Source: Candidatus Sulfotelmatobacter sp. (GTDB lineage Bacteria > Acidobacteriota > Terriglobia > Terriglobales > Acidobacteriaceae). From it: a stretch of 64,000 bases of DNA. The DNA is taken from contig DATMOO010000150.1 of NCBI GenBank assembly GCA_035568275.1, forward strand, positions 2,655-66,654. Direction: 5' to 3'. This document shows positions 9,681 through 42,803 of this stretch, piece by piece; the stretch's first letter is position 1, and every line of letters starts with the position of its first letter. The notes under the pieces are model-generated. The model worked only from the letters and a program-made list of their open reading frames with translations, had not been told where the DNA came from and did not search any database. A program made the translations under genes and the position numbers.

Positions 9681-9690
9681 GTCCCTCTTA

Positions 9691-9873: not shown

Positions 9874-9932
9874 TTCCGTTCACTCCTCGCATAAGAGGTT
9901 CACTGGAACGCGCCAAGTACTGGTATTGAAAG

Positions 9933-9947
9933 GCTTCCGCAATGCCA
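9933..9947 (-). promoter_or_regulatory. Weak sigma-54-like -24/-12 element upstream of the small ORF and amt
   Basis: The minus strand reads TGGCAT-TGCGG-AAGC. The GG-N10-GC spacing is correct, but the -12 region is AAGC rather than TTGC. Confidence 0.2.
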
Positions 9948-22288: not shown

Positions 22289-23500
22289 CTAGTGCGCGGT
22301 ATTCGCCAAACCGAGATAGTTGCCGTAGCCAACAATCATTGTCGATGCAACCAACAGAAAGAGTGCTAAAGCAAGAAGTGATCCGGCACGAGTACCGGCG
22401 CCTTTCCACTCTTTGAAGCCGATTCCCCAAAGGCTGCTGAAAATGATGATGCTGGCCATGTGTAGCGTCCAACTAGAGAAGCCATAGTGTCCCATCTGGC
22501 TCTCGCCCATGGTGTAGAAGAAGAATTGGAAGTACCAGGTTGTGCCTGCCAGAGCGCAGAGAAGATAGTTGCGAAGCATGGGCGCCTGGACGACGACCGG
22601 CGGCGGCGCTTCGGACATCAGGGCAACCCGAGTTCCTCCCTGGCGAGATGAGCCGATATGCTCCACCACTTCGCGGCTGGGCGCGTCGACTGCAGTCTCG
22701 ATGATCGGTTCGTCCTTAGGCCCGTTCACTCGAATCTGCGAATCGAAGAACTGATAGCCAGTCTTGTTGCGCGTGAGAAGGATCAAGCACCAGATGAAGT
22801 TGGTGAGGAAACCGCCCACTAAGACCACGATCAGCACTGGCAATCCCTGCCATAGTTTGGCGGTACCGTGCTGCAGGGTGAGAGTCTTAATCGGATCACC
22901 TGCCGCCAACCCGTAAGCAAAGCACGCGCTCATGACACCGGAGAGAACAGCGACGCCAATCCCTTTTCGCAGATCGAACTCTTGAATTGCAGCTCTTTGC
23001 TGCTCGGGTGACATGACGCGCTCCTTGGAAATACCTGCCAGGCCAGCCGCGGTAATTCCGGCGAGACAGACGAAAATTCCGAACAGAATCACGCGGCCTG
23101 AAGAAGTGCCGACAACCTGGGTCACGAATTCGCCACGGAAAATTGGGGGCATGAGCGTGCCAAAAGCGGCGCACAGCCCAAGCACAACCGCCATCCCTAG
23201 TGACAGGCCGAGGTAACGCATGGTGAGACCGAAGGTGAGTCCGCCGACGCCCCACAACAGTCCGAAGAAGAAAGCCCAGAAAAGCGCGGACCCAGGCGCT
23301 TGACCCAGCACAGCGAAGAGATCTTTGGTGAGGAGCGAAGCCAGAACCCACGGGGCGATGATCCAACTGAAGAATCCCCCCGCCAGCCAGTACGTCTCCC
23401 ATGCCCAGTGCTTCACGCCCTTATAGGGAACGTAGAAGCTGCCCGAGGCCAGGCCGCCGAGCCAGTGAAAAAGGACTCCCAGTGCCGGGTTTGGATTCAT
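22289..23500 (-). CDS. rhaT: L-rhamnose/H+ symporter (RhaT family)
   Basis: The N-terminus (NPALGVLFHWLGGLASGSFYVPYKGVKHWAWETYWL) is RhaT-like. It is the last gene of the rhamnose operon. Confidence 0.85.
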   Translation of the reverse strand: MNPNPALGVLFHWLGGLASGSFYVPYKGVKHWAWETYWLAGGFFSWIIAPWVLASLLTKDLFAVLGQAPGSALFWAFFFGLLWGVGGLTFGLTMRYLGLSLGMAVVLGLCAAFGTLMPPIFRGEFVTQVVGTSSGRVILFGIFVCLAGITAAGLAGISKERVMSPEQQRAAIQEFDLRKGIGVAVLSGVMSACFAYGLAAGDPIKTLTLQHGTAKLWQGLPVLIVVLVGGFLTNFIWCLILLTRNKTGYQFFDSQIRVNGPKDEPIIETAVDAPSREVVEHIGSSRQGGTRVALMSEAPPPVVVQAPMLRNYLLCALAGTTWYFQFFFYTMGESQMGHYGFSSWTLHMASIIIFSSLWGIGFKEWKGAGTRAGSLLALALFLLVASTMIVGYGNYLGLANTAH

Positions 23501-23517
23501 AGCTCCTCAAGTATGAC

Positions 23518-23835
23518 TTAAAGGTGGAAGACTTCCTCCAACGGACGCATTGCGCGATCGGGGAGAACTCCGTCGGGCTGAGCAAAAAAATCACCCATCT
23601 CCCGTTGCCATCTTTCGTTCACATCGCGCCGGGCCATCCCTGCGCGCGCGCGCTCAAAGTCCTCAGTCTCCAGATACCCGACGAGAAGACCGTCATTGCG
23701 CAGGAACAGGGAGTAATTCCCCCAGCCGGTTTCACGGAGAGCTGTTTGCATCTCGGGCCACACCTGACGGTGGCGTTTCTTGTACTCTTCGAGGCGTTCC
23801 GGCTTGACTTGTAGCACAAAGCAGATGCGCTGCAT
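23518..23835 (-). CDS. rhaM: L-rhamnose mutarotase
   Basis: MQRICFVLQVKPERLEEYKKRH..VWPEM parallels E. coli RhaM ([29 protein letters not shown]). The start at 23835 has AAGGAG upstream. Confidence 0.9.
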   Translation of the reverse strand: MQRICFVLQVKPERLEEYKKRHRQVWPEMQTALRETGWGNYSLFLRNDGLLVGYLETEDFERARAGMARRDVNERWQREMGDFFAQPDGVLPDRAMRPLEEVFHL

Positions 23836-23859
23836 CTCCAGCTCCTTAACAAAAATCAC

Positions 23860-26076
23860 CTAACGAAGATAGGCTTCTGATAAGCCACCATCTACCGGGA
23901 TCACATGTCCAGTCGTCTTGCCGCTCTGATCACCGGCCAGCCAGACGATCGCATTCGCGCAATCTTGCGGCAGTATGGGGCGCTTAGTCAGCGTGCGCTG
24001 CGCGTAGAAATCGGCTAGCTTGCCACGCAGCTCTTCCGTCGTCTCGGACTCTGAGAATTCGATTTTGTACTTCTGCAGGGATTGCATGACGCGATCGCGC
24101 GGGAACATTGTGGATCCAGCGACGACCGTTGCTGGCGCGATCCCATTCACCCGTACATGAGGGCTGAGCTTGATGGCGAGTTCGCGAATCAAGTGATTCA
24201 AGGCGGTCTTGCTCGTGTCGTAGGCCTCGCTGCCTTTCTTGGGAACCACTGCATTTGCTGAACTGGTAAGGACCATCGTGACAGGCAGGCTTTGATCTTT
24301 GAATACCCAATCGGTTTGGCGGGCTAGGAGGTAATTCCCGGTTACATTCACCAGAAATGTCTTAGCCCATTGTGCTTCAGAAAGCTCTCCATCGGGACCG
24401 GGCACAGGATAAATCGCTGCGGTGTTCACAACGATATCAATGCCGCCAAACTTCGAAATTGTGAATCGGACCGTTTCGGCTAGAGACTGGGATGAACTGA
24501 GATCAACGGCGGTCGCGGCTACCAATTCTGTCGAACTGTGGGCGCCGATCTCCTCAGCTACTTTGCTGCCGCCTGTCTGATCGAAATCGGCAACAACAAC
24601 GTGTGCTCCCCTGCGGCCGAGGAGTAGGGCCACTTCACGGCCGATTCCGCTGGCTCCTCCGATGACGAGGGCGATCTTGCGGCTGAACTCCGCTTCGGCG
24701 GGCATGCGCTGGAGTTTAGCTTCTTCCAGAGCCCAATACTCGATGCGGAATGCCTCCGATCGTGGCAACGCAACATAGTTGTGAAATTCAGTGAATTGTT
24801 TGGACTGCTCCGCAGTCCGTGCCTGTGGCAGCGGATGGGAGACTTTCCCGTCCTCCAGAGCATTAGCTCCCGCCATCACATGGATGGCGTTGATAAAGAA
24901 CTCAGTCGTGATCCGGGCTTCCTTTTTGTTCTTACCAAAGCCGAAGAGGCCCAGTCCGGGGATGACAACGACCGACGGATTCGAGTCGCGAAGTTTGGGG
25001 GACTCGCTGCTGGCCCACTCTTCGTAATACTTCGTATAGCCTTCACGATAGCCAGCAACCTCGTTATGGATGCGGTTCTTAAGGGCCTGAACGTCTTCTT
25101 TGGCAGGATCCCAACCGATGAACCACGGACTGACTCGTGTTCGCAAGAAGTGGTCGGGACAACTGGTTCCAAGAGAGCTCAGTTCCTTGACCCACTTCGA
25201 TCCGGCAAAGGCTAGTGCATCGTCATCGTCGGCATAATGCGCGACGACTCGGCGGTGCGAGGAGACCGTGCCGCGCAGCGCGGGAAGAATCTGCGTGGCG
25301 ATGGCCTTGCGGTCCTTAACCGGGGGATGCTTGACCCCGCCGAACAGAGAACCCTTCTTTGCCTGATGCTGCTGAATGAATTCTCCCATCTGGTCGATGG
25401 TGTGGACGCTGTTCAGATAGCAGTCCCGCTGCGTCATTCCCCACGTGAACAGGCCGTGGCCTCCGAGGATCAAGCCTTCGACGCCGGGGTTCTCTTTGAC
25501 GGCTCGTTCAATGAGCAGTGCCAGTTCAAAGCCTGGCCGTTGCCATGGAACCCAGACGATTTTGCGTCCGAATTCCTTGTTGAATTGATCCAGCTGACGT
25601 TTGCCATTTGCGCTGGCAGCCAGTGCAATCGCCCAGTCGGGATGCAGATGATCGACATGCGTAAACGGAAGGAACGCATGCAAAGGAGTATCGATAGACG
25701 CCGCCACGCGATTCTCGCCAAAGGCAGAGAGTGGATAGTAGCGCACCATCTCATCCTCATACTTCTCGCCGCGGTACAGTTCCTTCAGTTGCTCCATGCG
25801 ATCGAGATAAAGAAGAGCGAATCCCGACTCGGCAATCGAGCCGATGTCGCCGCCACTGCCCTTGACCGCCAGCACGCGGACCGGTGTTCCGGTAAATGGG
25901 TCGGGCAGATCGATCTTTGAACTCGTGTTTCCGCCGCCGAAGTTGGTGATGCGGAGATCCGCGCCCAGCAAATTGGAGCGGTATCGCAAAAGCGCCAGTT
26001 GATTGTCACCTAGTTCGCGGGCGTGGGGCTCGTTCCACAAGTCTTTCAAATACGTTGTTTCTTTAATTTCAGGCAT
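23860..26076 (-). CDS. rhaEW: Bifunctional L-rhamnulose-1-phosphate aldolase / short-chain dehydrogenase (RhaEW-type, lactaldehyde dehydrogenase half)
   Basis: 738 aa. It has an N-terminal class II aldolase/adducin-like region and a C-terminal SDR (IALVIGGASGIGRE...; YDTSKTALNHL). It sits in a rhamnose-operon context. Confidence 0.85.
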   Translation of the reverse strand: MPEIKETTYLKDLWNEPHARELGDNQLALLRYRSNLLGADLRITNFGGGNTSSKIDLPDPFTGTPVRVLAVKGSGGDIGSIAESGFALLYLDRMEQLKELYRGEKYEDEMVRYYPLSAFGENRVAASIDTPLHAFLPFTHVDHLHPDWAIALAASANGKRQLDQFNKEFGRKIVWVPWQRPGFELALLIERAVKENPGVEGLILGGHGLFTWGMTQRDCYLNSVHTIDQMGEFIQQHQAKKGSLFGGVKHPPVKDRKAIATQILPALRGTVSSHRRVVAHYADDDDALAFAGSKWVKELSSLGTSCPDHFLRTRVSPWFIGWDPAKEDVQALKNRIHNEVAGYREGYTKYYEEWASSESPKLRDSNPSVVVIPGLGLFGFGKNKKEARITTEFFINAIHVMAGANALEDGKVSHPLPQARTAEQSKQFTEFHNYVALPRSEAFRIEYWALEEAKLQRMPAEAEFSRKIALVIGGASGIGREVALLLGRRGAHVVVADFDQTGGSKVAEEIGAHSSTELVAATAVDLSSSQSLAETVRFTISKFGGIDIVVNTAAIYPVPGPDGELSEAQWAKTFLVNVTGNYLLARQTDWVFKDQSLPVTMVLTSSANAVVPKKGSEAYDTSKTALNHLIRELAIKLSPHVRVNGIAPATVVAGSTMFPRDRVMQSLQKYKIEFSESETTEELRGKLADFYAQRTLTKRPILPQDCANAIVWLAGDQSGKTTGHVIPVDGGLSEAYLR

Positions 26077-27556
26077 AAGTCATCTCGCAATACTGTTCGA
26101 ATCGCTCGGTCTGGCGCGTCCAATTGTCAGTCTCTACCGGATCGAAGACCTCCGTCGGAAAGGATCGGTCGATGATGCTGCGCACCTGCTGAAGCGACGA
26201 AGCTTCGCCGGTTGCCAGGATTTGCATGGCGATGTTCCCCAGTGCGGTGGCCTCGGCGGGCCCAGCCAGCACCCTTTTCCCCGTCGCATCGGCAGTGAAC
26301 TGATTGAGCAATCGATTCTTCGAGCCACCGCCGATCACGCGAACCTGATCGATGCGCTTTCCGCACAACTGCTCCAGACTGCGCAAAACCAGTCGATACT
26401 TCAGGGCCAGACTCTCGAGTATGCATCGCACATAGGCGCCCGGAGTCGCCGGTGTGGGTTGATGCGTCTTCCGGCAAAATTGATCGATGGCGGTGAGCAT
26501 ATCGGTTGGATGAAGGAAGGCTTCGTCATCCGGATCAACGAGATGAGTGAAGGCGGGTTCGCGACTTGCCAATTCGACCAGCTCCCGATAGTCAGAACCC
26601 TGCCCCCGTGGGCTCCAGCAATTTCTGCAACCCTGCAACATCCAGAGTCCCATCACGTTCTTCAGCAGCCGCGTCGTTCCGTTCACTCCGCCTTCATTGG
26701 TGAAGTTCAACCTAAGTGCCTCGCTAGTGACGATGGGTGCATCGAGTTCGGTGCCAATCAGCGACCAGGTTCCGGAACTCAAGAACGCAGTGCCGTCGCG
26801 AGCTGTGATCGCGGCGACGGCAGATCCGGTATCGTGGCAGGCGGGAGCAATCACCGGAGTCCCCGCCAAAGAGGAGTTCAGCGCGAGGGATGGGAGGATC
26901 GTGCCTAAGATCGAGCCCGGCTCGACGATCGGTGCCGGCGGGCTGGAGTTCAGCCCTAGCTTGTGCATGAGATCGATTGCCCATGTGCGCTTGACCGGAT
27001 CGACGAGTTGGGTCGTCGTTGCATTCGTAAATTCGCAAACCGCATTCCCGGTCAGCCAATAGTTGAAGAGGTCCGGTATGGTGAGCCATTGCTTCGCTGC
27101 CGCGATGATTGTGGGCGTGTCGCGCTGAGCAGCGTAGAGCTGATAGAGCGTATTGATGGGCATGAACTGGATGCCCGTCGCCCGATAGATCTGATCCCTC
27201 GCGACCTTTCGAAAAACGTCGTCCATCACGCCCTCGGTGCGGCGGTCGCGATAGTGATAGGGATTCTGAAGCAATTCACCGCGCTCGCCGAGCAAAGCGT
27301 AATCCACGCCCCACGCGTCCACGCCGATCCCCGCCAGTTCCATCTGTTCCACGCAAGTCAAGGCCTTCCGCACCTCGAACCAGAGGCGAGGAGCGTCCCA
27401 GTGAAGGGAACCGCCGTACTCAACGGGTTCATTCCGAAAGCGATGGACTTCCTCGGTTGTCAGAATGCCGGATTGCAGACGCGCCAGAACTGCGCGTCCG
27501 CTTTCGGCTCCGAAATCGAAGGCCAGATAAGGTTTCGGGTGAGTGGGGCTAGGCAT
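26069..27556 (-). CDS. rhaB: Rhamnulokinase (FGGY family)
   Basis: 495 aa with an FGGY kinase N-terminus (YLAFDFGAESGR) and a C-terminal GGGS.N motif (IGGGSKNRLLNQFTADATG). It has 8-nt overlaps with both neighbours. Confidence 0.9.
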   Translation of the reverse strand: MPSPTHPKPYLAFDFGAESGRAVLARLQSGILTTEEVHRFRNEPVEYGGSLHWDAPRLWFEVRKALTCVEQMELAGIGVDAWGVDYALLGERGELLQNPYHYRDRRTEGVMDDVFRKVARDQIYRATGIQFMPINTLYQLYAAQRDTPTIIAAAKQWLTIPDLFNYWLTGNAVCEFTNATTTQLVDPVKRTWAIDLMHKLGLNSSPPAPIVEPGSILGTILPSLALNSSLAGTPVIAPACHDTGSAVAAITARDGTAFLSSGTWSLIGTELDAPIVTSEALRLNFTNEGGVNGTTRLLKNVMGLWMLQGCRNCWSPRGQGSDYRELVELASREPAFTHLVDPDDEAFLHPTDMLTAIDQFCRKTHQPTPATPGAYVRCILESLALKYRLVLRSLEQLCGKRIDQVRVIGGGSKNRLLNQFTADATGKRVLAGPAEATALGNIAMQILATGEASSLQQVRSIIDRSFPTEVFDPVETDNWTRQTERFEQYCEMTYA

Positions 27557-28739
27557 ACGAAGACACGTTTTGGGAATTCTTCACCGCCCGCTCTTTCGTG
27601 ATGCGTTCCAGGTAGCCACTCTGCCGGAAGGCTTCCATCGGGTCTTTTGGCAGTCCCTTGGTCTCTCGCCACTCCTGGATTGCGGGTCGGACATCGGTTG
27701 CGAAGGCGTCCTGCAACGCCGTTTCGGCATCGACCAGATTGCAGCTCTTCTGGGCTGTCGCGAGCTTCTTCGTATCGACTAGCGCTGCTTTGGCGAAGAG
27801 TTGCTGGGCCATGGTCACAGTCTGAATCATGGCTTCCATCTTGCCTTTCAGGTTATGGCTCTGATCGACCATGTAGGCGATGTCGGCGCGCTGGCCGGTT
27901 TCCCATTCAAAGAAGTGGATCTCATGGAAGATGCGAAATACCTGATAAGGATCGATGGAACCCATGGTCAGGTCGTCATCGGCGTAGCGGCGATCATTGA
28001 AGTGGAAACCGCCCAGCATGTTCTCGCACAAAAGCCAGGCAACGATTTGTTCAATATTTTGCGCCGCGTAGTGGTGCCCCGTATCGACCAGAACCTTGGC
28101 TTGCGGGCCGGCCGCGCGTGACAGCAGCAAAGCCATTCCCCAGTCTGCAATGTCGGTGTGATAGAAGGCAGGCTCGAACGGTTTGTACTCGACCAGCATC
28201 CGTTGGTTCGGCGACAACTGCTGATGCGCCGTTTTCAGGCCGTCGGCGAACCATTCTTTGCGTTGCCGGATGTTGGCGGTGCCTGGATAATTCGATCCGT
28301 CGGCAAACCAAAATGAGATGTCTCTGCTGTTGAGCCGCCGCGCGATTTCAATGCTGTCTTTTGTGTGCCGCATGGCGCGCTGGCGGATGCCTTCATCCGG
28401 ATTGCCGAACGATCCATACTTGTATTCTTGATCCTGGAAAAGATTGGGATTGATGGATCCGGGAGCAACGGCATAACGGCTCGCGAAACGCTTGATCTCG
28501 TCTGTGCTTTGCACTCCAGCGGGACAGTCCCACAACACATGCAATGCCACTGTCGGACAGACACCTGTGAGGAGGTGCACCTGGCCCGCATCGCTGAACT
28601 TTTCCTCAGTAGTGGTGGCCGCTGCAAGTTGAATGAATTTTCCGAAACGGGTGCCGGTATTGGCGAATCCCCACGATGGCAACTCAATGCGGAATGTCTC
28701 AAGGGCGGCAAAAACCTTGTCACTCGTGGACGAACCCAT
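27549..28739 (-). CDS. rhaI: L-rhamnose isomerase, TIM-barrel RhaI type (non-RhaA)
   Basis: 396 aa with a xylose-isomerase-like TIM barrel (ELPSWGFANTGTRFG, VDTGHH, GFHFNDR.YADDDL). It is the first gene of the operon. Confidence 0.85.
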   Translation of the reverse strand: MGSSTSDKVFAALETFRIELPSWGFANTGTRFGKFIQLAAATTTEEKFSDAGQVHLLTGVCPTVALHVLWDCPAGVQSTDEIKRFASRYAVAPGSINPNLFQDQEYKYGSFGNPDEGIRQRAMRHTKDSIEIARRLNSRDISFWFADGSNYPGTANIRQRKEWFADGLKTAHQQLSPNQRMLVEYKPFEPAFYHTDIADWGMALLLSRAAGPQAKVLVDTGHHYAAQNIEQIVAWLLCENMLGGFHFNDRRYADDDLTMGSIDPYQVFRIFHEIHFFEWETGQRADIAYMVDQSHNLKGKMEAMIQTVTMAQQLFAKAALVDTKKLATAQKSCNLVDAETALQDAFATDVRPAIQEWRETKGLPKDPMEAFRQSGYLERITKERAVKNSQNVSSYA

Positions 28740-28813
28740 GCAAACCTCTCTTAGCGACGGAAGACTACATTCGATCTCTCACGCAGTCACGGTTTTCTTT
28801 GGCAAATCCTAGT

Positions 28814-28830
28814 GTTTCGCACAGCGAAAT
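28814..28830. promoter_or_regulatory. Candidate operator, 17-bp near-palindrome GTTTCGCACAGCGAAAT (site 1; between rhaI and the regulator gene)
   Basis: It is an inverted repeat GTTTCGC-ACA-GCGAAAT, 75 nt upstream of the rhaI ATG. Related copies lie in the other locus promoter regions (next four entries). Confidence 0.4.
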
Positions 28831-29200
28831 ACCTTAACAACACATCACGCGAGGCAAAGAGCCGAGAAGGCAAGATATCGATTCTGACCCCGATGACTTG
28901 CCTGCCCAATGTGCGAGTGCAGGCCGCCGCGCCGATTTCGCTTTGTAGAATCCAACGGTCAATTGCCGTTTGACGCGGAAGGGAGTTGCCCTGCAAATTC
29001 CGCGGCATTTACAGCATAAACGATTTTGTTGAGCGATACTGAGGACGATCAATCTTTCTGCCAAGAATTCCTGCGCAATAACAAATATCTTGCACCGGAA
29101 CTACTCTTGGTCCTTCCTTCGCTTGCTGGTGGCTCTGCCCATGTCGCCATCGCAAATTTCGCTTTGCAAAATGAAAAAAATGGATCATTATGTCGCACAT

Positions 29201-30373
29201 ATGAGCCCCGTCGCTCAGACCCGTGACCGGTACCTCGTCAAGTCCATTATTCACTCCTCACAGCTATTAAGCGCATTTCACTCGCCAGGCGAAGCGTTGC
29301 CACTTAAAGAAATTTGTGCGCGATGCGGCCTGCCAAAGACGATGGTGTTCCGGCTTCTCTATACGCTCGAAAAATGCGGCATGGTCGATAAAGTTGGTCA
29401 AAACCTTTATCAGTCCCGCGTGCGCCCGTGGAAGCAGCGGCTCTACCGTTTGGGATATGCGGCGCAGGGCACCGATTACCAGTTCTCGCGAGAAGTGTCT
29501 GAAGGCTTGCAGCGAGCAGCCGCTGCCGAAGGCATCGAACTCATCTCTCTCGATAATCGCTACAGCGCCAAGACCGCGCAACGAAACGCGGACTTGCTGG
29601 TGCGCGAAAAGGTCGACCTGGCGATCGAGTTTCAAACCGACGAGGAAGTCGCGCCGATCGTCGCGGCAAAGTATCGCGAGGCAGGCATTCCCATGATCGC
29701 GATCGATATCCCTCATCCCGGCGCGACTTATTACGGCGCGAATAACTATGAGGCCGGGTTGATCGGCGGCCGTTATCTAGGCCGATGGGTCAAGGAGCAT
29801 TGGCACTCGGAAGTGGATGAGATTCTCCTGCTCGAGTTGAAGCGGGCAGGGAACCTTCCTCGCATGCGTTTGTCAGGATTGCTGGTAGGAATCAATCTGG
29901 TATTGCCCAGCGCCGCGAATTGTCACGTGACGTACCTGGATGGCGACGGGGAGCTGGGGCCCAGCTTTGAAGCCGTACGAAGACATCTCCGTTCCTCGCA
30001 TGCGCGGCATGTGCTGGTGGGCGCAATCAATGATCCCAGCGCACTCGGCGCATTGCGTGCTTTTCAGGAAGCGGGCCGTTCGGAGAACTGTGCCGTCATC
30101 GGACAAAATGCGTCACCCGAGGGAAGAGCGGAATTGCGTCAGCCCAAAACTCGCTTCGTCGGTTCCGTGGCTTACTTCCCCGAACGCTACGGCGAAAACT
30201 TAATCAGAGTCAGTCTCGATATTCTGAACCAACGTCCGGTGCCGCCGGCAGTATTCGTTGAGCACAAGCTGGTGACGCCTGGGACCGTAGATCACTACTA
30301 TCCGAACGACGCGCTGGCCAACCTGGTTCGAACCGATCCTTTCGACTCAGCCCGGCAACATTTGGCCCACTAG
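29201..30373 (+). CDS. Hybrid transcriptional regulator with an IclR-type winged HTH fused to a periplasmic-binding-protein type-1 (LacI/RbsB-like) sugar-binding domain
   Basis: The ORF frame opens at 29090, with candidate starts at 29141, 29171, 29180 and 29201, none with a clear SD. The HTH (LLSAFHSPGEALPLKEICARCGLPKTMVFRLLYTLEKCGMVDKV) is IclR-like. The remainder (YRLGYAAQGTDYQFSREVSEGL..., IPMIAIDIP, VGAINDPSALGALRAFQEAGR) is PBP1-like. Confidence 0.75.
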   Translation: MSPVAQTRDRYLVKSIIHSSQLLSAFHSPGEALPLKEICARCGLPKTMVFRLLYTLEKCGMVDKVGQNLYQSRVRPWKQRLYRLGYAAQGTDYQFSREVSEGLQRAAAAEGIELISLDNRYSAKTAQRNADLLVREKVDLAIEFQTDEEVAPIVAAKYREAGIPMIAIDIPHPGATYYGANNYEAGLIGGRYLGRWVKEHWHSEVDEILLLELKRAGNLPRMRLSGLLVGINLVLPSAANCHVTYLDGDGELGPSFEAVRRHLRSSHARHVLVGAINDPSALGALRAFQEAGRSENCAVIGQNASPEGRAELRQPKTRFVGSVAYFPERYGENLIRVSLDILNQRPVPPAVFVEHKLVTPGTVDHYYPNDALANLVRTDPFDSARQHLAH

Positions 30374-30597
30374 ATCGAGCTGGCCAATAAAGCCCGTTTG
30401 CGTTCTCTGAGTTTGTTTAGCGCACCCTGCTCATTCCGCAAGCTCCACGCTCTCTAGCAATCACCTGAAAACTTTCTGCAATGCAAAACGAAATGGGTCG
30501 CAAGGTTGCCTGTGGCGCGCAGAAAACGCAATGGAACTTACGCGTGAATCGGTTGCTAAATAACGATTTGGCGCTCACGCCGTCCGCTATCCTGCAG

Positions 30598-30614
30598 GTT
30601 TTTCACCGCGAAAT
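30598..30614. promoter_or_regulatory. Candidate operator site 2 (GTTTTTCACCGCGAAAT), upstream of the TonB-dependent receptor gene
   Basis: 14/17 identical to site 1. It lies 174 nt upstream of the ATG at 30788. Confidence 0.3.
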
Positions 30615-30787
30615 GCGGATGGTTTTCAGGTTGCGAGTTGACGATGCTCGGCAGTCAATGGGAGCATCCGCCCCCAGTAGACGGCGACGTGGGTTTTGGG
30701 GCTGGGGAAAGTTCCATCATCAGGTTTCTGAGACGTGGGATTGATCCCTATTCCACGAAGTTGCAAACGTCGCCAGGAGAAAACCTC

Positions 30788-33700
30788 ATGTCCGCGACGA
30801 CACGCATTCTCTCGTTCTGCCTTTTGATCACTTCAGCAGTGCACTTGTATGCTCAGGGCGGAGCCTACGGAACCATCCTAGGAACTGTCAAGGACAACTC
30901 TGGAGCCGTGGTGGCCAAGGCGGGAGTCGACGTCACCAACGTGGCCACGAATGTAATCAAACACACGGAAACTACCGCTTCGGGGGACTTCACAGTTCCT
31001 TATTTGGCGCCGGGAACCTACCGCGTGACTGTGCAGTCGCAAGGATTTCAGAAGTCTGTCGTGGATAACATCGGATTGGTGGTCGGCCAAGAGGCTCGTG
31101 CCGACGTAGCCCTAAAGACGGGCGCAGTCTCTGAGACTGTAGAAGTTCAGGCCAGCGCCGTCGCGCTCGATACTGACAGTTCGGCGGTCTCACAGCTCGT
31201 AAGCCAGAGGCAAGTAGAGGAGCTGCCGCTCAATGGGCGAAATTTCCTGAGTCTGCTTTTCATCGGCGCCGGTGCTGTCCAGACCGTCGGCGAACAGGGC
31301 CAAATGCGCCAAGGGGCAGGGAATGCCATCAGCATTAACGGCGGGCGGCCTGAGTCCAACAACTATACGCTGGACGGATTGATCAACACCGATACGTCGC
31401 TCAACACTCCGGCAGTGATTCTTTCACAGGATGCCATCCAGGAATTCAAGGTGGCCAGCGAGAATTACGCTGCGGAGTATGGCTACAGCGCCAATCAAGT
31501 CAACATCATCAGCAAGAGTGGCACAAACCAGTTACATGGTACAGCATTCTTATTCGACAGAAACAACGCGTTCGACGCTTACACGCCGACGCCGTTTCAA
31601 ACGACCCCGACCAAGCCGGTGCTGCGTCAAAACCAGTTCGGCTTTGTGGTCGGTGGCCCGGTATACATCCCCAAAGTTTACGACGGACGCAACAAGACGT
31701 TCTTTTTCGTGAACTATGAGGGCTGGCGAATTGCGAATGGATATATCCAGAATGGAATTGTTCCTACGGCGGCGGAACTGAATGGGGATTTCTCGGCTAC
31801 CGGCCTTCCGGCCTTCGATTTGACCGCGGGATCGCCCTGCCAACTGGCACTCACTTCAAGCCCGAACGCGCTACCCTGCATGCCGGGCGACCCCCAAACC
31901 GGCCTGGCATTTACCGGGCCCGTTCCCGCAAACCGTTTTTCACGCTTGGCGACGGTAGCGCTTGCGGCCAACGTCATTCCGAGCCCGACTCCGGCCTGCG
32001 TGAGCAACCCCGGTTCGTGTGCGGGCGGTAACTACCAGTTGGTTCGAACGCTGCCCAACAACACCGACCAGCAGACCTACAAGCTTGATCAGACCCTGGG
32101 CCGTTTCGGATCGGTGTTCTTCCGCTACACGAAGGCAGACTTTTCAAATGAGAACCCACAGAACCTCGGAACAGAATTTAGCCTGAATCAGTTTACGCAA
32201 AACAGCACCAGTTGGATGGTTTCGCACAACATTCCCCTTGGGCACAGTATCGTCAACAGTTTTCGCTTTGGACATCTGGATGCCATTGCCATCCAGGGTG
32301 CGCCAGCTGCGTCGAGCAGCCAGATTTCTGCTTTGGGCGTGACTGGGGTCTTCACCAACCTTCCAGCAAGTTACGCGGCAGGTTTCCCCACGATCAACTT
32401 TGAGGGAGCTCTGCTGGGCAGCTACGGCAGCCCGGGTAACAACCCGACGACCAGCGACGTACCGACGTGGGAATTCTCCGATTCCATGACTATGGTGCAC
32501 GGAAAGCACACCATCGGAGTGGGATTCGACTATCGCCGCTTTATTTCGAAGAGAAACCTCTCCGGAAACTTCTTGGGCGGTTATAGCTACACTAACAACA
32601 ATGTCCTGACCAACAGCAACACCGTAGGGGGTGTTCAGCAGTGTGCGACCTCCCTCTGTAGCACAGGGAACGAAGTAGCGGATTTCCTTCTCGGCTATTA
32701 CAACGGTGCCAACACGTTTCAACCGGGACCTTTCAGCAATCCAAGTATCGCCGGCAACTTGAATCAGTACCACTTTATGTACTTTGCTCCGTATGTGCAG
32801 GACGACTGGAAGGTGAACAGCCGCCTTACTTTAAACCTCGGACTGCGCTGGGACTACCGATCTGTGCCTTATGAACAGAGTAACAAGTTCTTCTGGATCG
32901 ATGATCAGAACACGAGCGGTGGAGGATTGTGTTTCGCTGATCAGGCCTTGGCAAACGACGGTGTCGCGCCGCCAGGGAACGGCTTCTATCGTTATTGCGG
33001 CCGGCACAATCCTGCCGACGGTTCCAAAACTCCATTCGCCCCCCGCCTTGGGTTTGCCTGGCGTCCGTTCGGCGGCGACAAGACAGTGGTCCGCGGTGGC
33101 TACGGAATCTTCTGGGATTCATCGGAGAGCCGCGAGATAGACGATTCCGGCGACCTATATCCTTTTGTCGAGCGCACTTCGCTTTCACCCAATTCGCAAT
33201 CGGCCACTGCAGCGCCCAAGTTGACCGATCAACTGTTCCCCGCTCAGACTGCGGTTGTTCCCGTGACCGCTCCGAATAGTCAGTTTGTTGCGGTCATTGT
33301 TTCCGACCACCCAAGGAATCCCTACGTGCAACAGTACACAGTCTCGGTGCAGCGTGAGGTGGCTCGCAACACCACGCTCGAGGTGAACTACGTTGGGAAT
33401 CGGGGACTCCATTTACTGGATCGCATCGACCTCAACACACCTTCCGTCTTGACCGGAACCCAACTGGCAACTTGCCAGGCGGCGTTTGCCGGCCTTCCCG
33501 CAACCAATAACATCTATCTCGCGAACCAGTGCCCTTTCTATGCACGTCAGCCCCTGCCTAACTTTGCAATTCCCGGTCCTTTGAATAGCTCGTGGACCGG
33601 CTACTCCAATTACAACGGCGGGAATGTGAAACTGGAACATCGTGGAGGCAGTTTCGCGCTGTTGACCGTTTACACCTACGCAAAGAGCATGGACGACAAA

Positions 33701-34372
33701 TCCGCTGCCGCCGGGATCGGAGCCAATGGCGCCGGCTTTGCCGGACATATGGACGATCTGAATCCGCACCTGGACTACGCTCCCTCAGATTTCAGCGTGA
33801 AGCATCGTTTCGTGAACAGCATCGTTTACGCCCTTCCGGTGGGGCGTGGAAAGCGCCTCCTGGGTGACATAAATAAGGCAGAAAATATGCTGATTGGCGG
33901 ATGGCAACTGAGTATGATCACGACATTCCAGACCGGATTCCCTTTCTCGATAAACGCGTCAGATCCGGGAGCCTATTTGAGTTTCGGGATGCGCGCCAAT
34001 CAATCGGGCAGTCCCAGCCCGATTGGCGGGAAGAACATTAATCATTGGTTCAACGTCTCTGCATTCACTCAGCCCGCCTTCGGTGTATACGGTGACTCCG
34101 GACGGAACATACTCACTCAACCAGGAATCAATAACTGGGATATCGGACTGGGCAAGACGTTCCAGTTCACCGAAAGGGTTGGTTTCCAGTTCCGGGTTGA
34201 AACTTTCAACACGTTTAACCACACTCAGTATGGGGTCGACCCAACTACCCAGGCTTCCGGGGGACCGGGCCAAAGTGCGGTTGATGGAACTCTCGGGACT
34301 GTTCAATTCGGGGAGGTCACCAGCGCTCGTCCTGGCCGAATTATTCAGTTCGGCGGCAAAGTCATCTTCTAG
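30788..34372 (+). CDS. TonB-dependent outer-membrane receptor with an N-terminal carboxypeptidase-regulatory-like domain (Acidobacteria-type, ~1190 aa)
   Basis: ATG 30788 has GGAGA upstream. It has a signal peptide (MSATTRILSFCLLITSAVHLYAQ), a CarboxypepD_reg-like fold (GTILGTVKDNSGAVV...GTYRVTV), a plug region (LPLNGRNFLSLL), a long barrel and a terminal aromatic residue (...GGKVIF). Confidence 0.9.
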   Translation: MSATTRILSFCLLITSAVHLYAQGGAYGTILGTVKDNSGAVVAKAGVDVTNVATNVIKHTETTASGDFTVPYLAPGTYRVTVQSQGFQKSVVDNIGLVVGQEARADVALKTGAVSETVEVQASAVALDTDSSAVSQLVSQRQVEELPLNGRNFLSLLFIGAGAVQTVGEQGQMRQGAGNAISINGGRPESNNYTLDGLINTDTSLNTPAVILSQDAIQEFKVASENYAAEYGYSANQVNIISKSGTNQLHGTAFLFDRNNAFDAYTPTPFQTTPTKPVLRQNQFGFVVGGPVYIPKVYDGRNKTFFFVNYEGWRIANGYIQNGIVPTAAELNGDFSATGLPAFDLTAGSPCQLALTSSPNALPCMPGDPQTGLAFTGPVPANRFSRLATVALAANVIPSPTPACVSNPGSCAGGNYQLVRTLPNNTDQQTYKLDQTLGRFGSVFFRYTKADFSNENPQNLGTEFSLNQFTQNSTSWMVSHNIPLGHSIVNSFRFGHLDAIAIQGAPAASSSQISALGVTGVFTNLPASYAAGFPTINFEGALLGSYGSPGNNPTTSDVPTWEFSDSMTMVHGKHTIGVGFDYRRFISKRNLSGNFLGGYSYTNNNVLTNSNTVGGVQQCATSLCSTGNEVADFLLGYYNGANTFQPGPFSNPSIAGNLNQYHFMYFAPYVQDDWKVNSRLTLNLGLRWDYRSVPYEQSNKFFWIDDQNTSGGGLCFADQALANDGVAPPGNGFYRYCGRHNPADGSKTPFAPRLGFAWRPFGGDKTVVRGGYGIFWDSSESREIDDSGDLYPFVERTSLSPNSQSATAAPKLTDQLFPAQTAVVPVTAPNSQFVAVIVSDHPRNPYVQQYTVSVQREVARNTTLEVNYVGNRGLHLLDRIDLNTPSVLTGTQLATCQAAFAGLPATNNIYLANQCPFYARQPLPNFAIPGPLNSSWTGYSNYNGGNVKLEHRGGSFALLTVYTYAKSMDDKSAAAGIGANGAGFAGHMDDLNPHLDYAPSDFSVKHRFVNSIVYALPVGRGKRLLGDINKAENMLIGGWQLSMITTFQTGFPFSINASDPGAYLSFGMRANQSGSPSPIGGKNINHWFNVSAFTQPAFGVYGDSGRNILTQPGINNWDIGLGKTFQFTERVGFQFRVETFNTFNHTQYGVDPTTQASGGPGQSAVDGTLGTVQFGEVTSARPGRIIQFGGKVIF

Positions 34373-34400: not shown

Positions 34401-34434
34401 CGCCAGGCCGACTGTGGCCTGGCGCGATTTTTTT
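34401..34434 (+). terminator. Rho-independent terminator after the receptor gene
   Basis: A 9-bp stem CGCCAGGCC/GGCCTGGCG with loop GACTGT, followed by CGA and T7. It is preceded by the 13-mer AACCCACCGCCAG, which it shares with the two attenuator hairpins. Confidence 0.7.
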
Positions 34435-34450
34435 GAGGTACACTCGCTCC

Positions 34451-35664: not shown

Positions 35665-37176
35665 CTAGGGCAGCGTCACAACGGCCACGGAATACCCGCC
35701 TAGGCTCACTGTCTCGCCACCTAGTTTCGTCATGGCGGGAGGCTGGAAACCGGTAGTTTGATCGACGTAGTCCAGCTGTCCGTCGCTGGCGCCTGTTACC
35801 GCAACATCGAATTTCCGATCGCGCTTGTTAACCAAGAGCATGCGATGTTTGCCGTCGTGCGTGACGAAGGCCAGAGAGTAGACATAGGGATTGTTCGGCA
35901 TAGTCTCAATCTCGACCTGCTTATCGCCTGGGCCGAAGTGGTCGTGAAGCAGCTTGAGCACCCAGAAGCGCGCGTTTGGCTTCCCGTCATTCCAATCAAC
36001 CATCGAGACGCTGGGGAATTGCGTGGGAAATCCGACAAGCTGTGACTCTCCGGCCACATCGATGCCGATTTGCGTAAGTTCGCCGAAGAGATATGCGTAC
36101 ATCGCACCAGCCAAGTTCCAGTAGGAATTTGGAATTGGCTGAGCCACGTGTCCCGGGGTCCCCTGAGCAAGATCATCGGCGGAAATCACGCCGAGTTCGT
36201 CGATCGTCGTCTTCGTCTCAGGAGACAATCGCCTGCGGATGGCCTCCACGTAGCGCACGGTCTTGAGGAATCCGTCTGCCTGAGCGAAATACGTGAACTG
36301 CTCCACTTCCGGAGTCTCGTCAACCGAAGGAACTGCATAAAAATGGTAGGAGATGAAATCCAACGCCACGCCCGGCTTGTGGTTCTTGTGATCAAGAAAA
36401 TACTCAAAGTAGTGCGGATCGGTGGTCATGGCCAGAGCCAGCCCGACGAATTTCATGTCAGGCTGAACCTTCTTCATTGCTAAGACGACTTCGTCATAAA
36501 GCTTGGTGTAGGTTTCCGGCGTAATGTGGTGCTCGAAATCGATTTCATTCAGCACCTCCCAGTAGGGTATCGAGTAGTGGTATCCAGATTCGTGACGCTT
36601 GCCGAATTCATCGGTGAAGCCACCCTGCGTGTACCACGAGACGAGCCGGGCATAGTAGTCGGCGACTTCCTTCATGCTGGGATCGCGAAGCTCCGTCCCC
36701 TGCTCGTACGTCCAGATCACCTGCGCTGGATCTGCAGGATATGCGACTGGTTTGTCGGTGACGTACATCCATTGCGGGATTGTGCTGAAGTTGAGAATGA
36801 CGGAATGTCCCTTCGTCGCTTCCAGAAAGTCGATAGTCATGGGATCGATCGGCGTAAAGTCCCAAGACGTTCTCCCATCTTTTGGGGGTTCCAGTTCGGC
36901 GACCCCGAGCTTCGGATAGGGAAGCCATGGAACGTAACGCACATAGTCCGCTCCGAGATCATGAAGAGCCTTGAACGCATTGTCATGCACGGGCGTGCCC
37001 CGCTGCAGAGGAGGATTGACCACAACCTGCAGCGTCGAGGTTGTCTGGGAAGTGTGGATGACCTTATCCCAGTGCGGCGTGACTTTGATGGGCTGTTCCT
37101 GAGCAGAGGAAGCCAAAGCGCAGCATATGAGAACAGCGATGTTCGTCATAATTCGTGACGCGAACCGAATGCTCAT
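35665..37176 (-). CDS. Secreted glycoside hydrolase, (beta/alpha)8 clan GH-A type (family not assignable by eye; GH39/GH30-like)
   Basis: It has a signal peptide and a TIM-barrel with an acid/base-type NE motif (YWEVLNEIDFEH). It is divergent from the isomerase gene. Confidence 0.6.
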   Translation of the reverse strand: MSIRFASRIMTNIAVLICCALASSAQEQPIKVTPHWDKVIHTSQTTSTLQVVVNPPLQRGTPVHDNAFKALHDLGADYVRYVPWLPYPKLGVAELEPPKDGRTSWDFTPIDPMTIDFLEATKGHSVILNFSTIPQWMYVTDKPVAYPADPAQVIWTYEQGTELRDPSMKEVADYYARLVSWYTQGGFTDEFGKRHESGYHYSIPYWEVLNEIDFEHHITPETYTKLYDEVVLAMKKVQPDMKFVGLALAMTTDPHYFEYFLDHKNHKPGVALDFISYHFYAVPSVDETPEVEQFTYFAQADGFLKTVRYVEAIRRRLSPETKTTIDELGVISADDLAQGTPGHVAQPIPNSYWNLAGAMYAYLFGELTQIGIDVAGESQLVGFPTQFPSVSMVDWNDGKPNARFWVLKLLHDHFGPGDKQVEIETMPNNPYVYSLAFVTHDGKHRMLLVNKRDRKFDVAVTGASDGQLDYVDQTTGFQPPAMTKLGGETVSLGGYSVAVVTLP

Positions 37177-37395: not shown

Positions 37396-37412
37396 GTTTC
37401 GCACTTCGAAAT
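37396..37412. promoter_or_regulatory. Candidate operator site 3 (GTTTCGCACTTCGAAAT), in the divergent GH / isomerase promoter region
   Basis: 15/17 identical to site 1, and 17/20 over the extended GTTTCGCAC..CGAAAT.CC. It lies 92 nt upstream of the ATG at 37504. Confidence 0.4.
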
Positions 37413-37503
37413 GCCGCTCTAGGTAGGCGGGAGGCTTGTGGCTCGGACGAACACGGGCTATGCTTCCCGATTTACAGGTCTTTGTCAACGGGACATTTTC
37501 AGA

Positions 37504-38940
37504 ATGAATTCATCAGACGATCAACTCAAGGTCGGACTCTTCGGCATCGGTCTGGATACGTACTGGGAACAGTTCCCCGGGCTTAGGGATAGGCTCGTTG
37601 GATTCACTGAGCAAGTTGCTCGAAAGCTCGAGAGCTCTAGGGTAAGAGTAGTCAATCTCGGACTCGTCGATACTCCCGAGAAGTCCTTCGCAGCTGGGCA
37701 CGAGTTTCGCAAAGCAGATGTTGATCTGATCTTTCTATACGTCACGACTTATGCTTTGTCTTCGACCGTGCTCCCTGCCGTCCGACGCGCGAAAGTGCCG
37801 GTCATTATTCTGAATCTCTCACCTACTCCCGCCGTTGACTATGAGCGATTCAATCGGTTGGGAGACCGCACTCAGATGACCGGTGAGTGGCTTGCCTTCT
37901 GCCAGGCTTGCCCCGTTCCGGAGATCGCAAACGTTTTTAATCGCTGCCGCATTCCATTCTTTCAGGTGACCGGAACGCTCGATGACGATCCGGTCGCCTG
38001 GGCTGAGATTTCCGATTGGGTCGAAGCGGCTCGCGTCGCGCATGTGATGGAGCACAACCGCCTTGGAGTGATGGGTCATTACTACGGAGGCATGCTCGAC
38101 ATTTACTCCGATCTCACGCAGCAATGTGCTTACTTCGGAGGCCACATCGAGATCCTTGAAGTCGAAGAACTGGCCGCCCTGCGACGCGACGTCAGCGAAG
38201 CCGATGCGATCCGCAAGGTCACGGAGCTCAGGAGTGCCTTCGATGTGCAGGCCGATTGTTCCCTGGACGAACTGCTGCGCGCCGCTCGCACTTCTGTGGC
38301 TTTGGATCGTTTGGTCGAGCGACACAATCTCGGCTCGTTCGCGTACTACCACAAGGGCGTGGGCAGTGCGGACAACGAGGACACGATCAGTTCGATCATA
38401 CTGGGCACAAGCTTGTTGACTGCGCGTGGTGTGCCGGTCGCGGGAGAATACGAAATCAAGAATGTTCAGGCAATGAAAATCCTCGACACGTTCGGTGTTG
38501 GAGGTTCTTTCACCGAATACTACGCCGTGGACTACAGCGACGATGTCGTGTTGATGGGGCACGACGGCCCGGGTCATATTGCGATCGCCCAGGGAAAAAC
38601 CAAAGTCCGGCCGCTGGACGTATATCACGGAAAGGTGGGGCACGGACTCTCGGTGGAGATGTCTGTGAAGCATGGTCCAGTAACTTTGCTGTCCGTCGTG
38701 CAAACCGTCGACGGGAAGCTCAAGTTGCTGACCGCGGAAGGAGAGTCAGTGCCCGGGCCGATTCTGGAAATCGGCAACGCCAACAGCCGGTACCGATTTG
38801 CTCTCGGAGTGAGAAACTTTATGAGTGAGTGGAACGGGCATGGCCCGGCGCATCATTGCGCTGTGGGAGTGGGGCACGTTTCCGGCAAGCTGAAGAAGTT
38901 GGCTGCTCTCCTCGCGATGGAATGCGTTCAAGTGTGTTAA
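37504..38940 (+). CDS. L-arabinose isomerase family (AraA-like) sugar isomerase
   Basis: The start is taken at MNSSDDQLKVGLFGIGL. The C-terminal half follows the AraA pattern (VAGEYEIKN...GGSFTEYY..D...VVLMGHDGPGH...GPAHHCAV). The substrate is uncertain. Confidence 0.75.
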   Translation: MNSSDDQLKVGLFGIGLDTYWEQFPGLRDRLVGFTEQVARKLESSRVRVVNLGLVDTPEKSFAAGHEFRKADVDLIFLYVTTYALSSTVLPAVRRAKVPVIILNLSPTPAVDYERFNRLGDRTQMTGEWLAFCQACPVPEIANVFNRCRIPFFQVTGTLDDDPVAWAEISDWVEAARVAHVMEHNRLGVMGHYYGGMLDIYSDLTQQCAYFGGHIEILEVEELAALRRDVSEADAIRKVTELRSAFDVQADCSLDELLRAARTSVALDRLVERHNLGSFAYYHKGVGSADNEDTISSIILGTSLLTARGVPVAGEYEIKNVQAMKILDTFGVGGSFTEYYAVDYSDDVVLMGHDGPGHIAIAQGKTKVRPLDVYHGKVGHGLSVEMSVKHGPVTLLSVVQTVDGKLKLLTAEGESVPGPILEIGNANSRYRFALGVRNFMSEWNGHGPAHHCAVGVGHVSGKLKKLAALLAMECVQVC

Positions 38941-38975: not shown

Positions 38976-38992
38976 GTTCTGCAATGCGAAAT
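38976..38992. promoter_or_regulatory. Candidate operator site 4 (GTTCTGCAATGCGAAAT), upstream of the GH78 gene
   Basis: 13/17 identical to site 1. It shares GCGAAATGCGG with site 2. Confidence 0.25.
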
Positions 38993-39094: not shown

Positions 39095-39111
39095 TTTTCA
39101 CACCGCGAAAT
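39095..39111. promoter_or_regulatory. Candidate operator site 5 (TTTTCACACCGCGAAAT), upstream of the GH78 gene
   Basis: 14/17 identical to site 1. It lies 151 nt upstream of the TTG start at 39262. Confidence 0.3.
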
Positions 39112-39261
39112 TCAGGGGAACGGGAGTTCGCAAGTTGACACGAGTACCCGTCCGGTGAAACCATCCCGGCCATTCGACGATCAAGCAGTCATGTCCACGT
39201 CTGCTCTTCACGACACAGCTAATGCCTTCACGGCCTCGATCGATCCCGACAGGAGAATCGC

Positions 39262-42450: not shown

Positions 42451-42803
42451 GCGGAAGCGCGGGACCGTCATGACTATGAATCGCAGAGAGTGGACGCAGA
42501 AGGGCACGACTTTCGCGCTCGGAATCGGGCTAGGCGAACGATTGCTCGCTTCCCCTGGCAAGTCACCGTTGTCAGGCGAAGTAACGCCCGCGGCGTCTCA
42601 GAAGTTTCTGCCGAAGTTCCTCTGGGCAGCTTTCGCGATTTTTCCCAATGCAATTGCGCTCGGCTTCACCGTCCGCTTCTGGGTCTCGCGATCGACTGCG
42701 ATCAGTCCGAACTTCGGGGTGATTCGTTGTGATGTTTTTATCGCCGAAGCAGGCAGATTTCTATCTGGAATTTGAAAGACAACTGCAAGCCGAGGAGTCC
42801 CTG

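Follow-up and report, generated by a model that had tools for sequence, protein, structure and literature searches.

A winged-helix fusion protein as the probable local regulator of rhamnose utilisation in a soil acidobacterium

We consider a regulator gene in a stretch of DNA of 64,000 nucleotides (nt) from Candidatus Sulfotelmatobacter sp. (contig DATMOO010000150.1, positions 2,655 to 66,654), called here the window. The gene encodes a protein in which an IclR-type winged helix is followed by a sugar-binding domain of the type-1 periplasmic-binding-protein (PBP1) fold. It lies divergent from the L-rhamnose operon rhaI-rhaB-rhaEW-rhaM-rhaT and upstream of the genes of a TonB-dependent receptor and of glycoside hydrolases (GH). 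Judged from sequence, the protein very probably controls these surrounding rhamnose-utilisation genes through a 17-base-pair (bp) palindrome, for which 170 distinct sites give the consensus RTTTCGCAWTGCGAAAY. The first-pass annotation of the window had placed the gene between the rhaI-rhaT operon and the receptor and GH genes, divergent from the former, and had named it the candidate regulator of the locus. The neighbours are genuine rha genes and rhamnosidases, and the candidacy is strongly supported by the conserved synteny and the conserved operator.

Domain architecture of the protein

We begin with the extent of the gene. The open reading frame (ORF) at 29090..30373 (forward strand), taken as the gene in the first-pass annotation, is present, but it over-extends the gene at its start. 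The true start is almost certainly the ATG at 29201, because the close homologs are mostly 390 amino acids (aa) long and the upstream extension is not conserved as protein. This length, which matches the ATG at 29201, is that of most of the 120 closest homologs (85-94% identity). In the over-called homologs, the N-terminal extensions are mutually unrelated except for a short piece, which reads ISLCK in some and FALQN in others. Since ISLCK and FALQN are translations, in two frames, of one and the same operator DNA, ATTTCGCTTTGCAAAAT, this piece is kept as DNA and not as protein. The regulator gene is thus placed at 29201..30373 (forward strand, 390 aa).

The two-domain architecture follows from Pfam, which assigns HTH_IclR (PF09339; aa 58-101 of the ORF from 29090, E 8.6e-11, 41.9 bits against a cutoff of 22) and Peripla_BP_4 (PF13407; aa 125-380 of the same ORF, E 1.4e-21), with Peripla_BP_1 and Peripla_BP_3 as weaker matches and PF00532 also above its cutoff. 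Both domains are found in all 33 diverse family members tested, so that the fusion is far beyond chance. The C-terminal effector domain of the IclR family (PF01614) and the helix-turn-helix (HTH) of LacI (PF00356) give no Pfam match on the regulator even at E<=1, and the GntR HTH (PF00392) gives none either. With the NCBIfam models there are sub-threshold partial matches only, of RbsB over the C-terminal part and of IclR-type regulators over the N-terminal part; the RbsB equivalog reaches 37 bits against a cutoff of 337, and a LacI subfamily model 14 bits against 340. The fusion proposed from the letters of the window is thereby confirmed, as is the replacement of the usual IclR effector domain by a PBP fold.

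The N-terminal domain (29237..29416, aa ~13-72) has a further line of support in the known structures. A profile of the N-terminal 80 residues, made from 30 members, gives 13 matches in the Protein Data Bank (PDB), 12 of which are IclR-family regulators; the matches include TtgV, KdgR, TM0065 and the double-IclR PobR (PDB 5w1e), with E from ~1e-12 to 4e-17. The profile searches therefore identify an IclR winged helix, and not the LacI or other HTH that had been considered as the alternative outcome; the peptide quoted in the first-pass annotation, LKEICARCGLPKTMVFRLLYTLEKCGMVDKV, is found in the protein.

The fold is described by an AlphaFold2 (AF2) model built on the 33 diverse members (mean predicted local distance difference test 92.1, predicted template-modelling score 0.80). 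In the model the winged helix consists of helices at aa 14-24, 35-42 and 46-58 and strands at 32-34, 62-66 and 69-72. A linker of ~10 residues (aa 73-82) leads to a two-lobed alpha/beta PBP fold from aa 83 to ~370-372 (29447..30316), the presumed sugar sensor. While the PBP type-1 fold of the first-pass annotation stands, its size of ~330 aa does not; the domain has ~290 aa (aa 83-372). Its relatives are also other than expected, because the domain is nearer to transporter-type binding proteins such as RbsB, and to the BT1754 sensor, than to LacI effector domains. In a Foldseek search against the PDB, the matches (TM 0.8-0.88 on the target) are the fructose-binding sensor domain of BT1754, a hybrid two-component system of Bacteroides, and binding proteins of the RbsB type or for glucose/galactose and arabinose. 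Since every one of these alignments covers only ~285-320 columns, all in the PBP part, the full architecture is without a solved structure. The sequence search of the PDB (phmmer) agrees, with RbsB-type proteins and BT1754 as the best matches and LacI-family structures as weak ones (E 1.6e-5 and 5.5e-3). Residues R223 and D278 are near-invariant in the family and align with an Arg and an Asp of E. coli RbsB, which we take to be sugar-contacting residues.

Among proteins with other DNA-binding domains, the nearest relatives of the sensor domain (36-42% identity) have the order HTH_DeoR, DeoRC and Peripla_BP_4 in 550-600 aa. These proteins (P0173, P0178, P0190, P0207, P0212, P0216, P0223, P0230) are complete DeoR regulators with an extra PBP sensor. 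The secreted tandem-PBP proteins P0146, P0149 and P0217 are also close relatives.

The rhamnose locus, its operator and its promoters

The genomic layout is conserved. In 80 species-level genomes whose orthologs have 73-99% identity, the arrangement rhaEW-rhaB-rhaI, divergent regulator, receptor and tetratricopeptide repeat (TPR) protein, with or without a GH39 gene, dominates. Orthologs at 55-63% identity, from Bryobacterales and from metagenomes, are divergent from a TonB receptor gene accompanied by GH106, GH78, rhaM, an FGGY kinase or the pair of a GH39-like hydrolase and an isomerase. A separate clade at 35-39% identity (SH-aLRT 99), called here clade B, is embedded in the rha operon itself (rhaI-regulator-rhaEW-rhaB, with rhaT in some) in at least 17 genomes. 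From such gene neighbourhoods, two regulator clades are firmly linked to rhamnose. Other paralogs adjoin GH92 with UxuA and a short-chain dehydrogenase/reductase (SDR), GH127, a GH78-like gene, or AraA-like isomerases, and because these enzyme loci differ, the family has diversified in sugar specificity. No other regulator gene is common to the orthologous loci examined.

The motif was found from k-mers common to the intergenic regions of the locus, and a 17-bp position weight matrix (PWM) was trained on six sites from the window. The word TTTCGCNNNGCGAAA occurs 10 times in the window with at most two mismatches, against 5.5 expected; all four of the matches with at most one mismatch, and six of the 10 with at most two, are in the intergenic regions of the rhamnose locus. 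Outside the window, a site is present in the upstream intergenic region (within ~450 bp) in 76 of 80 orthologous loci, and most of the 80 have two more sites before the receptor gene. In a first set of loci, where the 99th percentile of the background is 12.6 PWM bits, all five orthologs at 60-82% identity (L034, L037, L068-L070) carry a site of 19-25 bits no more than 350 bp upstream of their own gene. Most close orthologs keep an autoregulatory site at about -45 to -29 from the ATG. When the whole genome (7.17 Mb) is scanned with the PWM, the top seven matches are the six training sites and one match in a coding region. The latter (C68:14246, 23.3 bits) was considered as an extra member of the regulon and dismissed as a chance match, for it is inside a SurA-like coding region.

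Where the regulator is lacking, so is the motif: in three related genomes with rhaI but no regulator, the rhaI promoter is free of sites. One of the three is from the same genus (L155, G335:C2:856300-876200); its GH78 and divergent rhaI-rhaB-rhaEW-rhaT are intact, but the GH78-rhaI intergenic region has no operator. Regulator and sites come and go as a unit, and another factor must control the rhamnose genes in L155. In another same-genus locus (L157, G179:C1:3224000-3243900, at 9511-10511), the rhaI matches come in two pieces, aa 1-173 and 237-396, possibly a disrupted gene.

Related regulators have related sites. Several paralogs at 42-58% identity carry similar palindromes or the variant ATTCC-N7-GGAAT. 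In a subclade beside GH127 or GH78-like genes (L039, L042, L047), this variant stands upstream and replaces TTTCG-N7-CGAAA, which hints that the operator and the DNA-binding domain co-vary there. Upstream of the clade-B regulators, a de novo search for perfect palindromes gave nothing convincing. The clade-B loci L048-L057 have a conserved semi-palindrome, RATTYCATTARCGAAAY, ~70-75 bp upstream of the regulator. It resembles the operator of the window with the half-sites one base closer, and may be the operator of this clade.

Eight sites in the window reach 17 bits or more with the PWM, and all are intergenic within the rhamnose locus. Upstream of rhaI, a predicted proximal operator, GTTTCGCACAGCGAAAT (28814..28830, 24.8 bits), is centred at about -68, and a predicted distal one, ATTTCGCTTTGTAGAAT (28935..28951, 17.6 bits), follows at 121 bp. 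The predicted autoregulatory operator (29156..29172, 24.1 bits), which is the piece of DNA behind ISLCK and FALQN, is 29-45 bp upstream of the ATG of the regulator. Before the TonB receptor gene there are a distal (30473..30489, 17.4 bits) and a proximal predicted operator (30598..30614, 20.4 bits); one more (37396..37412, 23.8 bits) is between the GH39-like and the AraA-like isomerase genes; and a distal (38976..38992, 21.3 bits) and a proximal one (39095..39111, 20.1 bits) precede GH78. Adjacent sites are preferentially 119-128 bp apart, which is the dominant spacing in the window and loci L071-L150 taken together, and the three pairs of the window (28814/28935, 30473/30598, 38976/39095) have spacings of 121, 125 and 119 bp. 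At ~12 helical turns, this distance suggests a dimer of dimers that binds cooperatively or loops the DNA.

The proximal sites stand in a fixed relation to the putative promoters, in that four promoters have 23 nt from the operator to a -35-like hexamer. At each of them a further 18 nt lead to a second hexamer: GTGACT and AGTCTT at the rhaI promoter, TTGACG (30638-30643) and GAGCAT (30662-30667) at the receptor promoter, TTGACA (39135-39140) and AACCAT at the GH78 promoter, and TTGTGG (37436-37441) and ATGCTT at the isomerase promoter. Among 588 deduplicated site-directions in the fetched loci, TTGAC has an offset of exactly 23 nt to the edge of the operator in 55, and no other offset occurs in more than three. 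The alignments of orthologs show that the length of this spacer is kept as its sequence drifts. Such a constant distance of 23 nt from the proximal site, centred at about -68, down to a -35-like element suggests activation. Directly upstream of the -35 TTGAC, the receptor (30629-30637) and GH78 (39125-39134) promoters have a block GTT(G/C)GC(G/A)AG, conserved in orthologs and perhaps a third half-site or UP-like element.

The promoter of the regulator itself is arranged differently. Here the operator overlaps a putative -35 element, TTTGCA (29163-29168), followed after N17 by a putative -10 element, CATTAT (29186-29191), and this overlap suggests autorepression. A -10-like element (CATTAT, TATTAT or TATGAT) is conserved among the orthologs and ends ~10 nt before the ATG. 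The stretch before the ATG (29186-29203) shows no Shine-Dalgarno sequence, and the mRNA may be leaderless.

The predicted targets can now be listed with their positions. The whole predicted operon (22289..28739, reverse strand; Pfam and NCBIfam) comprises rhaI (27549-28739), rhaB (26069-27556), rhaEW (23860-26076), rhaM (23518-23835) and rhaT (22289-23500), in which rhaEW encodes a bifunctional aldolase/dehydrogenase (PMC3870299). The small rhaM gene between rhaEW and rhaT, an L-rhamnose mutarotase (TIGR02625, E 3e-19), completes the operon. On the forward strand, the TonB-dependent receptor (30788-34372) and the TPR protein (34433-35650) are predicted targets by domain search and synteny. The GH39-like hydrolase (35665..37176, reverse strand) is divergent from the AraA-like isomerase (37504..38940, forward strand), and the two have the operator region at 37396 in common. 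The isomerase probably starts at the ATG at 37504, because the GTG at 37438, with which the longest ORF begins, is inside the predicted -35 element of its own promoter. The rhamnosidases GH78 (39262-42450) and GH106 (42729-46205), both on the forward strand, follow.

Proposed mechanism and its alternatives

Combining the architecture, the operators and the promoter geometry, we think it likely that the protein is a cytoplasmic one-component transcription factor that binds RTTTCGCAWTGCGAAAY sites and serves, at this locus, as master regulator for the use of rhamnose and rhamnosides, with the geometry of an activator at its targets and autorepression at its own gene. In this mechanism, the IclR-type winged helix would read the DNA and the C-terminal RbsB-like two-lobed domain would sense a sugar. 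Genomic context makes L-rhamnose, brought in by RhaT, the probable effector, or else L-rhamnulose, the first product formed from it. The palindromes, which are often paired ~120-127 bp apart, would be bound by a dimer or dimer of dimers. The targets would be rhaI-rhaB-rhaEW-rhaM-rhaT, the gene of the regulator itself, the TonB receptor and TPR genes, the pair of GH39-like hydrolase and AraA-like isomerase, and GH78 (with GH106). At the catabolic and uptake promoters, the protein on the proximal site at about -68 would be an activator touching the RNA polymerase, and at its own promoter the operator over the -35 would give autorepression. The position at about -68 is reminiscent of IclR-type activators of divergent catabolic operons, and in the beta-ketoadipate pathway, regulators of the IclR type act as activators (PMC5814911). 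We infer the oligomeric state, the effector and the sign of the regulation from such comparisons and from the geometry.

Several considerations weigh against this mechanism or reduce the force of its evidence. The binding of the 17-bp motif by the regulator is deduced from their co-occurrence. The PWM scores within the window are circular, so that the orthologous loci and the genome-wide scan are the only independent support, and as the 80 orthologous loci are related, their counts overstate the independence. There is no site before GH106 nor between rhaEW and rhaT; because GH106 has no operator before it, it is probably co-transcribed with GH78. A scan of 28700-30820 finds no canonical sigma-70 promoter, so that the promoter proposals rest on conserved blocks of the alignments, and the elements are guessed from consensus, while little is known of promoters in this phylum. 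As to the effector, the DeoR-type RhaR of Chloroflexus responds to L-rhamnulose and not to L-rhamnose (PMC3870299). By analogy, PBP-type sensors (LacI, AraR) usually belong to sugar-released repressors, which argues against an activator, and paired sites ~120 bp apart also fit repression mediated by a loop.

These last points lead to the alternative that deserves most weight, in which the same protein with the same operator is, like LacI, GalR or AraR, a sugar-released repressor at all of the promoters: tetramers would loop the paired sites ~120-127 bp apart, and rhamnose would open the loop. Such logic is the norm for regulators with a PBP1 sensor (AraR, PMC1950556), repressors of the IclR family bind in tetrameric form until their ligand releases them (PMC5814911), the spacing of 119-128 bp is dominant and recurs at three independent promoter regions of the window, and the operator at the regulator's own promoter overlaps its putative -35. 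At the rhaI, receptor, GH78 and isomerase genes, however, the sites are upstream of the -35-like element and not over it, and the exact distance of 23 nt between operator and TTGAC is kept despite the drift of the spacer, for which a repressor has no obvious need. We regard a repressor at all promoters as a serious alternative, though one less probable than the activator. We consider it unlikely that the regulator is real but the palindrome belongs to another transcription factor, or that the sugar sensed is one other than rhamnose, e.g., an oligosaccharide released by the GH39-like, GH78 or GH106 enzymes. The link between motif and protein is indeed a deduction from sequence, but the motif tracks the regulator, with the autoregulatory site kept and the motif missing where the regulator is missing, and the loci examined have no second regulator gene in common. 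As to the sugar, specificity has diversified among the paralog clades (beside GH92 with UxuA, GH127 and AraA-like isomerase loci), and where a genome has several paralogs, it is GH39 and isomerase genes, and not the rha catabolic genes, that adjoin the branch nearest to the protein of the window; against this, RbsB-like pockets bind monosaccharides and two separate clades both co-localise with rha genes.

It is far less probable still, to the point of being negligible, that the protein serves an ABC transporter as its sugar-binding component, secreted or periplasmic, and that the HTH similarity is spurious. The name given by JGI ('ribose transport system substrate-binding protein'), the closeness of the PBP domain to RbsB, and the mildly hydrophobic stretch with which the over-extended ORF from 29090 opens would all fit a secreted protein. 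Yet HTH_IclR is present in every one of the 33 members and the N-terminal profile matches IclR structures. At the conserved start 29201 no signal peptide is found (the maximum of the Kyte-Doolittle hydropathy, window 15, is 1.03 in the first 45 aa), and in the AF2 model the first residues of the 390-aa protein sit in helix 1 of the winged helix. The neighbourhood of the regulator contains no ABC permease or ATPase genes; RhaT and the TonB receptor serve the uptake there. The absence of a leader at 29201, together with the extension from 29090 being non-coding operator DNA, rules this candidate out, and with it the outcome, raised in the first-pass annotation, of a secreted binding protein with a signal peptide.

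A family of sugar regulators and its relation to known systems

The protein is outside the established families. Lack of PF01614 sets it apart from the IclR family proper, lack of PF00356 from the LacI family, and lack of a GntR HTH from the AraR subfamily; with neither a signal peptide nor ABC partner genes, it is no transport binding protein either. Its closest functional analogue appears to be AraR of Bacillus subtilis, likewise a chimeric one-component sugar regulator, in which a GntR-type winged helix is joined to a LacI/GalR-like PBP1 effector domain (PMC1950556). In both, an N-terminal winged helix of one family precedes a C-terminal PBP1 domain, and genes of catabolism, uptake and glycosidases are under several palindromic operators, some of them paired, although these are predicted for the protein of the window. 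The differences are that its DNA-binding domain is IclR-type (PF09339) whereas that of AraR is GntR-type, that its sensor resembles the binding proteins of transporters (Peripla_BP_4) more than the effector domains of LacI, that its operator has another sequence with the proximal site upstream of the -35 instead of over the promoter, and that AraR is a proven repressor while its own sign is deduced.

Other systems resemble the protein in one part each. With the LacI/GalR family (RbsR, LacI) it has in common a cytoplasmic PBP1 sensor behind an N-terminal DNA-binding domain, palindromic operators and possible looping, but it lacks the LacI-type HTH and the hinge helix; some members are nevertheless named 'LacI family' by NCBI. 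With the IclR family (IclR, KdgR, PobR/PcaU, TtgV), which holds both activators and repressors (PMC5814911), it has in common the type of winged helix and, typically for such regulators, a gene divergent from the target operon and apparent autoregulation, but a PBP1 fold takes the place of PF01614. In sequence as in structure, the sensor domain is matched best by the hybrid two-component sensor BT1754 (PDB 2x7x) and RbsB-type proteins. BT1754 also uses a PBP1 domain in signalling that controls a glycan-utilisation locus, but the BT1754 and RbsB domains are periplasmic and act via a kinase or a transporter, while the domain of the protein in the window is cytoplasmic and fused to a DNA-binding domain.

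For L-rhamnonate, E. coli has RhmR, a canonical IclR regulator. The regulators described for rhamnose itself are the AraC-type RhaS/RhaR, the DeoR-type RhaR (Bacillus, Thermotoga, Rhizobium, Chloroflexus) and the LacI-type RhaR (Actinomycetales). A study of rhamnose regulons across six phyla reports LacI, DeoR and AraC regulators, with no IclR type and no Acidobacteria (PMC3870299); the first-pass annotation had named the AraC, DeoR, LacI and GntR families for the described rhamnose regulators. The likeness to these regulators is in the local control of rha and rhamnoside genes in one to several operons (PMC3870299); they are not orthologous, and the DNA-binding domain and motif of the protein in the window are different.

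The first-pass annotation had seen in the protein an unusual chimera and a different solution to rhamnose regulation. The IclR/PBP1 fusion is real, but it is not a one-off, and the combination of winged helix and PBP1 has a precedent in AraR. Clustered at 90% identity, the family has at least 5,229 clusters in a word-indexed search and at least 5,533 in a profile search (E<=1e-20), and in both searches alike all of the best 120 matches listed have PF09339 and PF13407. An exhaustive HMMER scan of 1.84 billion representatives at 50% identity gives 355 clusters at E<=1e-30. In its own genome the regulator is single copy, with no paralogs found by genome search and tblastn with the full protein, the HTH part and the PBP part. 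Full-length members are carried by ~28 of 401 sampled genomes of the phylum, with up to four paralogs per genome, and are concentrated in the window's own taxonomic family (21 of 33 genomes).

The named hosts are nearly all Acidobacteriota (Ca. Sulfotelmatobacter, Acidobacteriaceae, Terriglobales, Bryobacterales, Vicinamibacteria), apart from three metagenome-assembled genomes labelled otherwise. These three, labelled Dormibacterota, Gemmatimonadales and Binatia (L097, L098, L100), have 87%-identical orthologs in full acidobacterial synteny, and mis-binned contigs or mislabelled bins are more likely there than recent transfer. The source databases name the proteins "LacI family transcriptional regulator", "substrate-binding domain-containing protein" or "ribose transport system substrate-binding protein" (JGI), and the 'LacI family' label is a misannotation as to membership. 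The fusion is therefore no singular chimera; it is a large family centred on Acidobacteriota, mis-annotated and uncharacterised. Full-text literature searches give no matching paper on the domain combination or on acidobacterial sugar regulators, a result that does not prove the family undescribed.

From these data a wider picture can be drawn, which we put forward tentatively and with slightly less than even confidence. The fusion of IclR winged helix and PBP1 domain would be an unrecognised family of one-component sugar regulators centred on Acidobacteriota, arisen when a winged-helix DNA-binding domain captured a binding protein of the transporter type, independently of LacI and in parallel to it. 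Its paralogs would each govern a locus of TonB receptor and GH genes (for rhamnosides, mannosides with hexuronate, arabinofuranosides), as sugar-dependent activators that work from about -68 with a distal site ~12 helical turns away and that repress themselves.

Few soil bacteria are as abundant as the Acidobacteria, which are major degraders of plant and microbial polysaccharides. To our knowledge, almost nothing is known of how they regulate the uptake of glycans. For the use of rhamnose and rhamnosides, the family offers a testable regulator together with its defined operator, a well-defined regulon predicted in silico, and an unusual, conserved geometry of operator and promoter, and its paralogs may explain the control of other TonB-receptor loci. 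Thousands of entries are mislabelled "LacI family regulator" or "ribose ABC transporter substrate-binding protein", which skews the counts of transporters and regulators in soil metagenomes. The family is also a natural experiment in allostery, with a LacI-style clamshell sensor placed on a different DNA-binding domain and, in related proteins, on a complete DeoR regulator; compact PBP-based regulators are, in addition, attractive scaffolds for sugar biosensors. While the idea of domain shuffling is itself unsurprising, the abundance of the family in soil bacteria and the testable mechanism make the family a worthwhile target.

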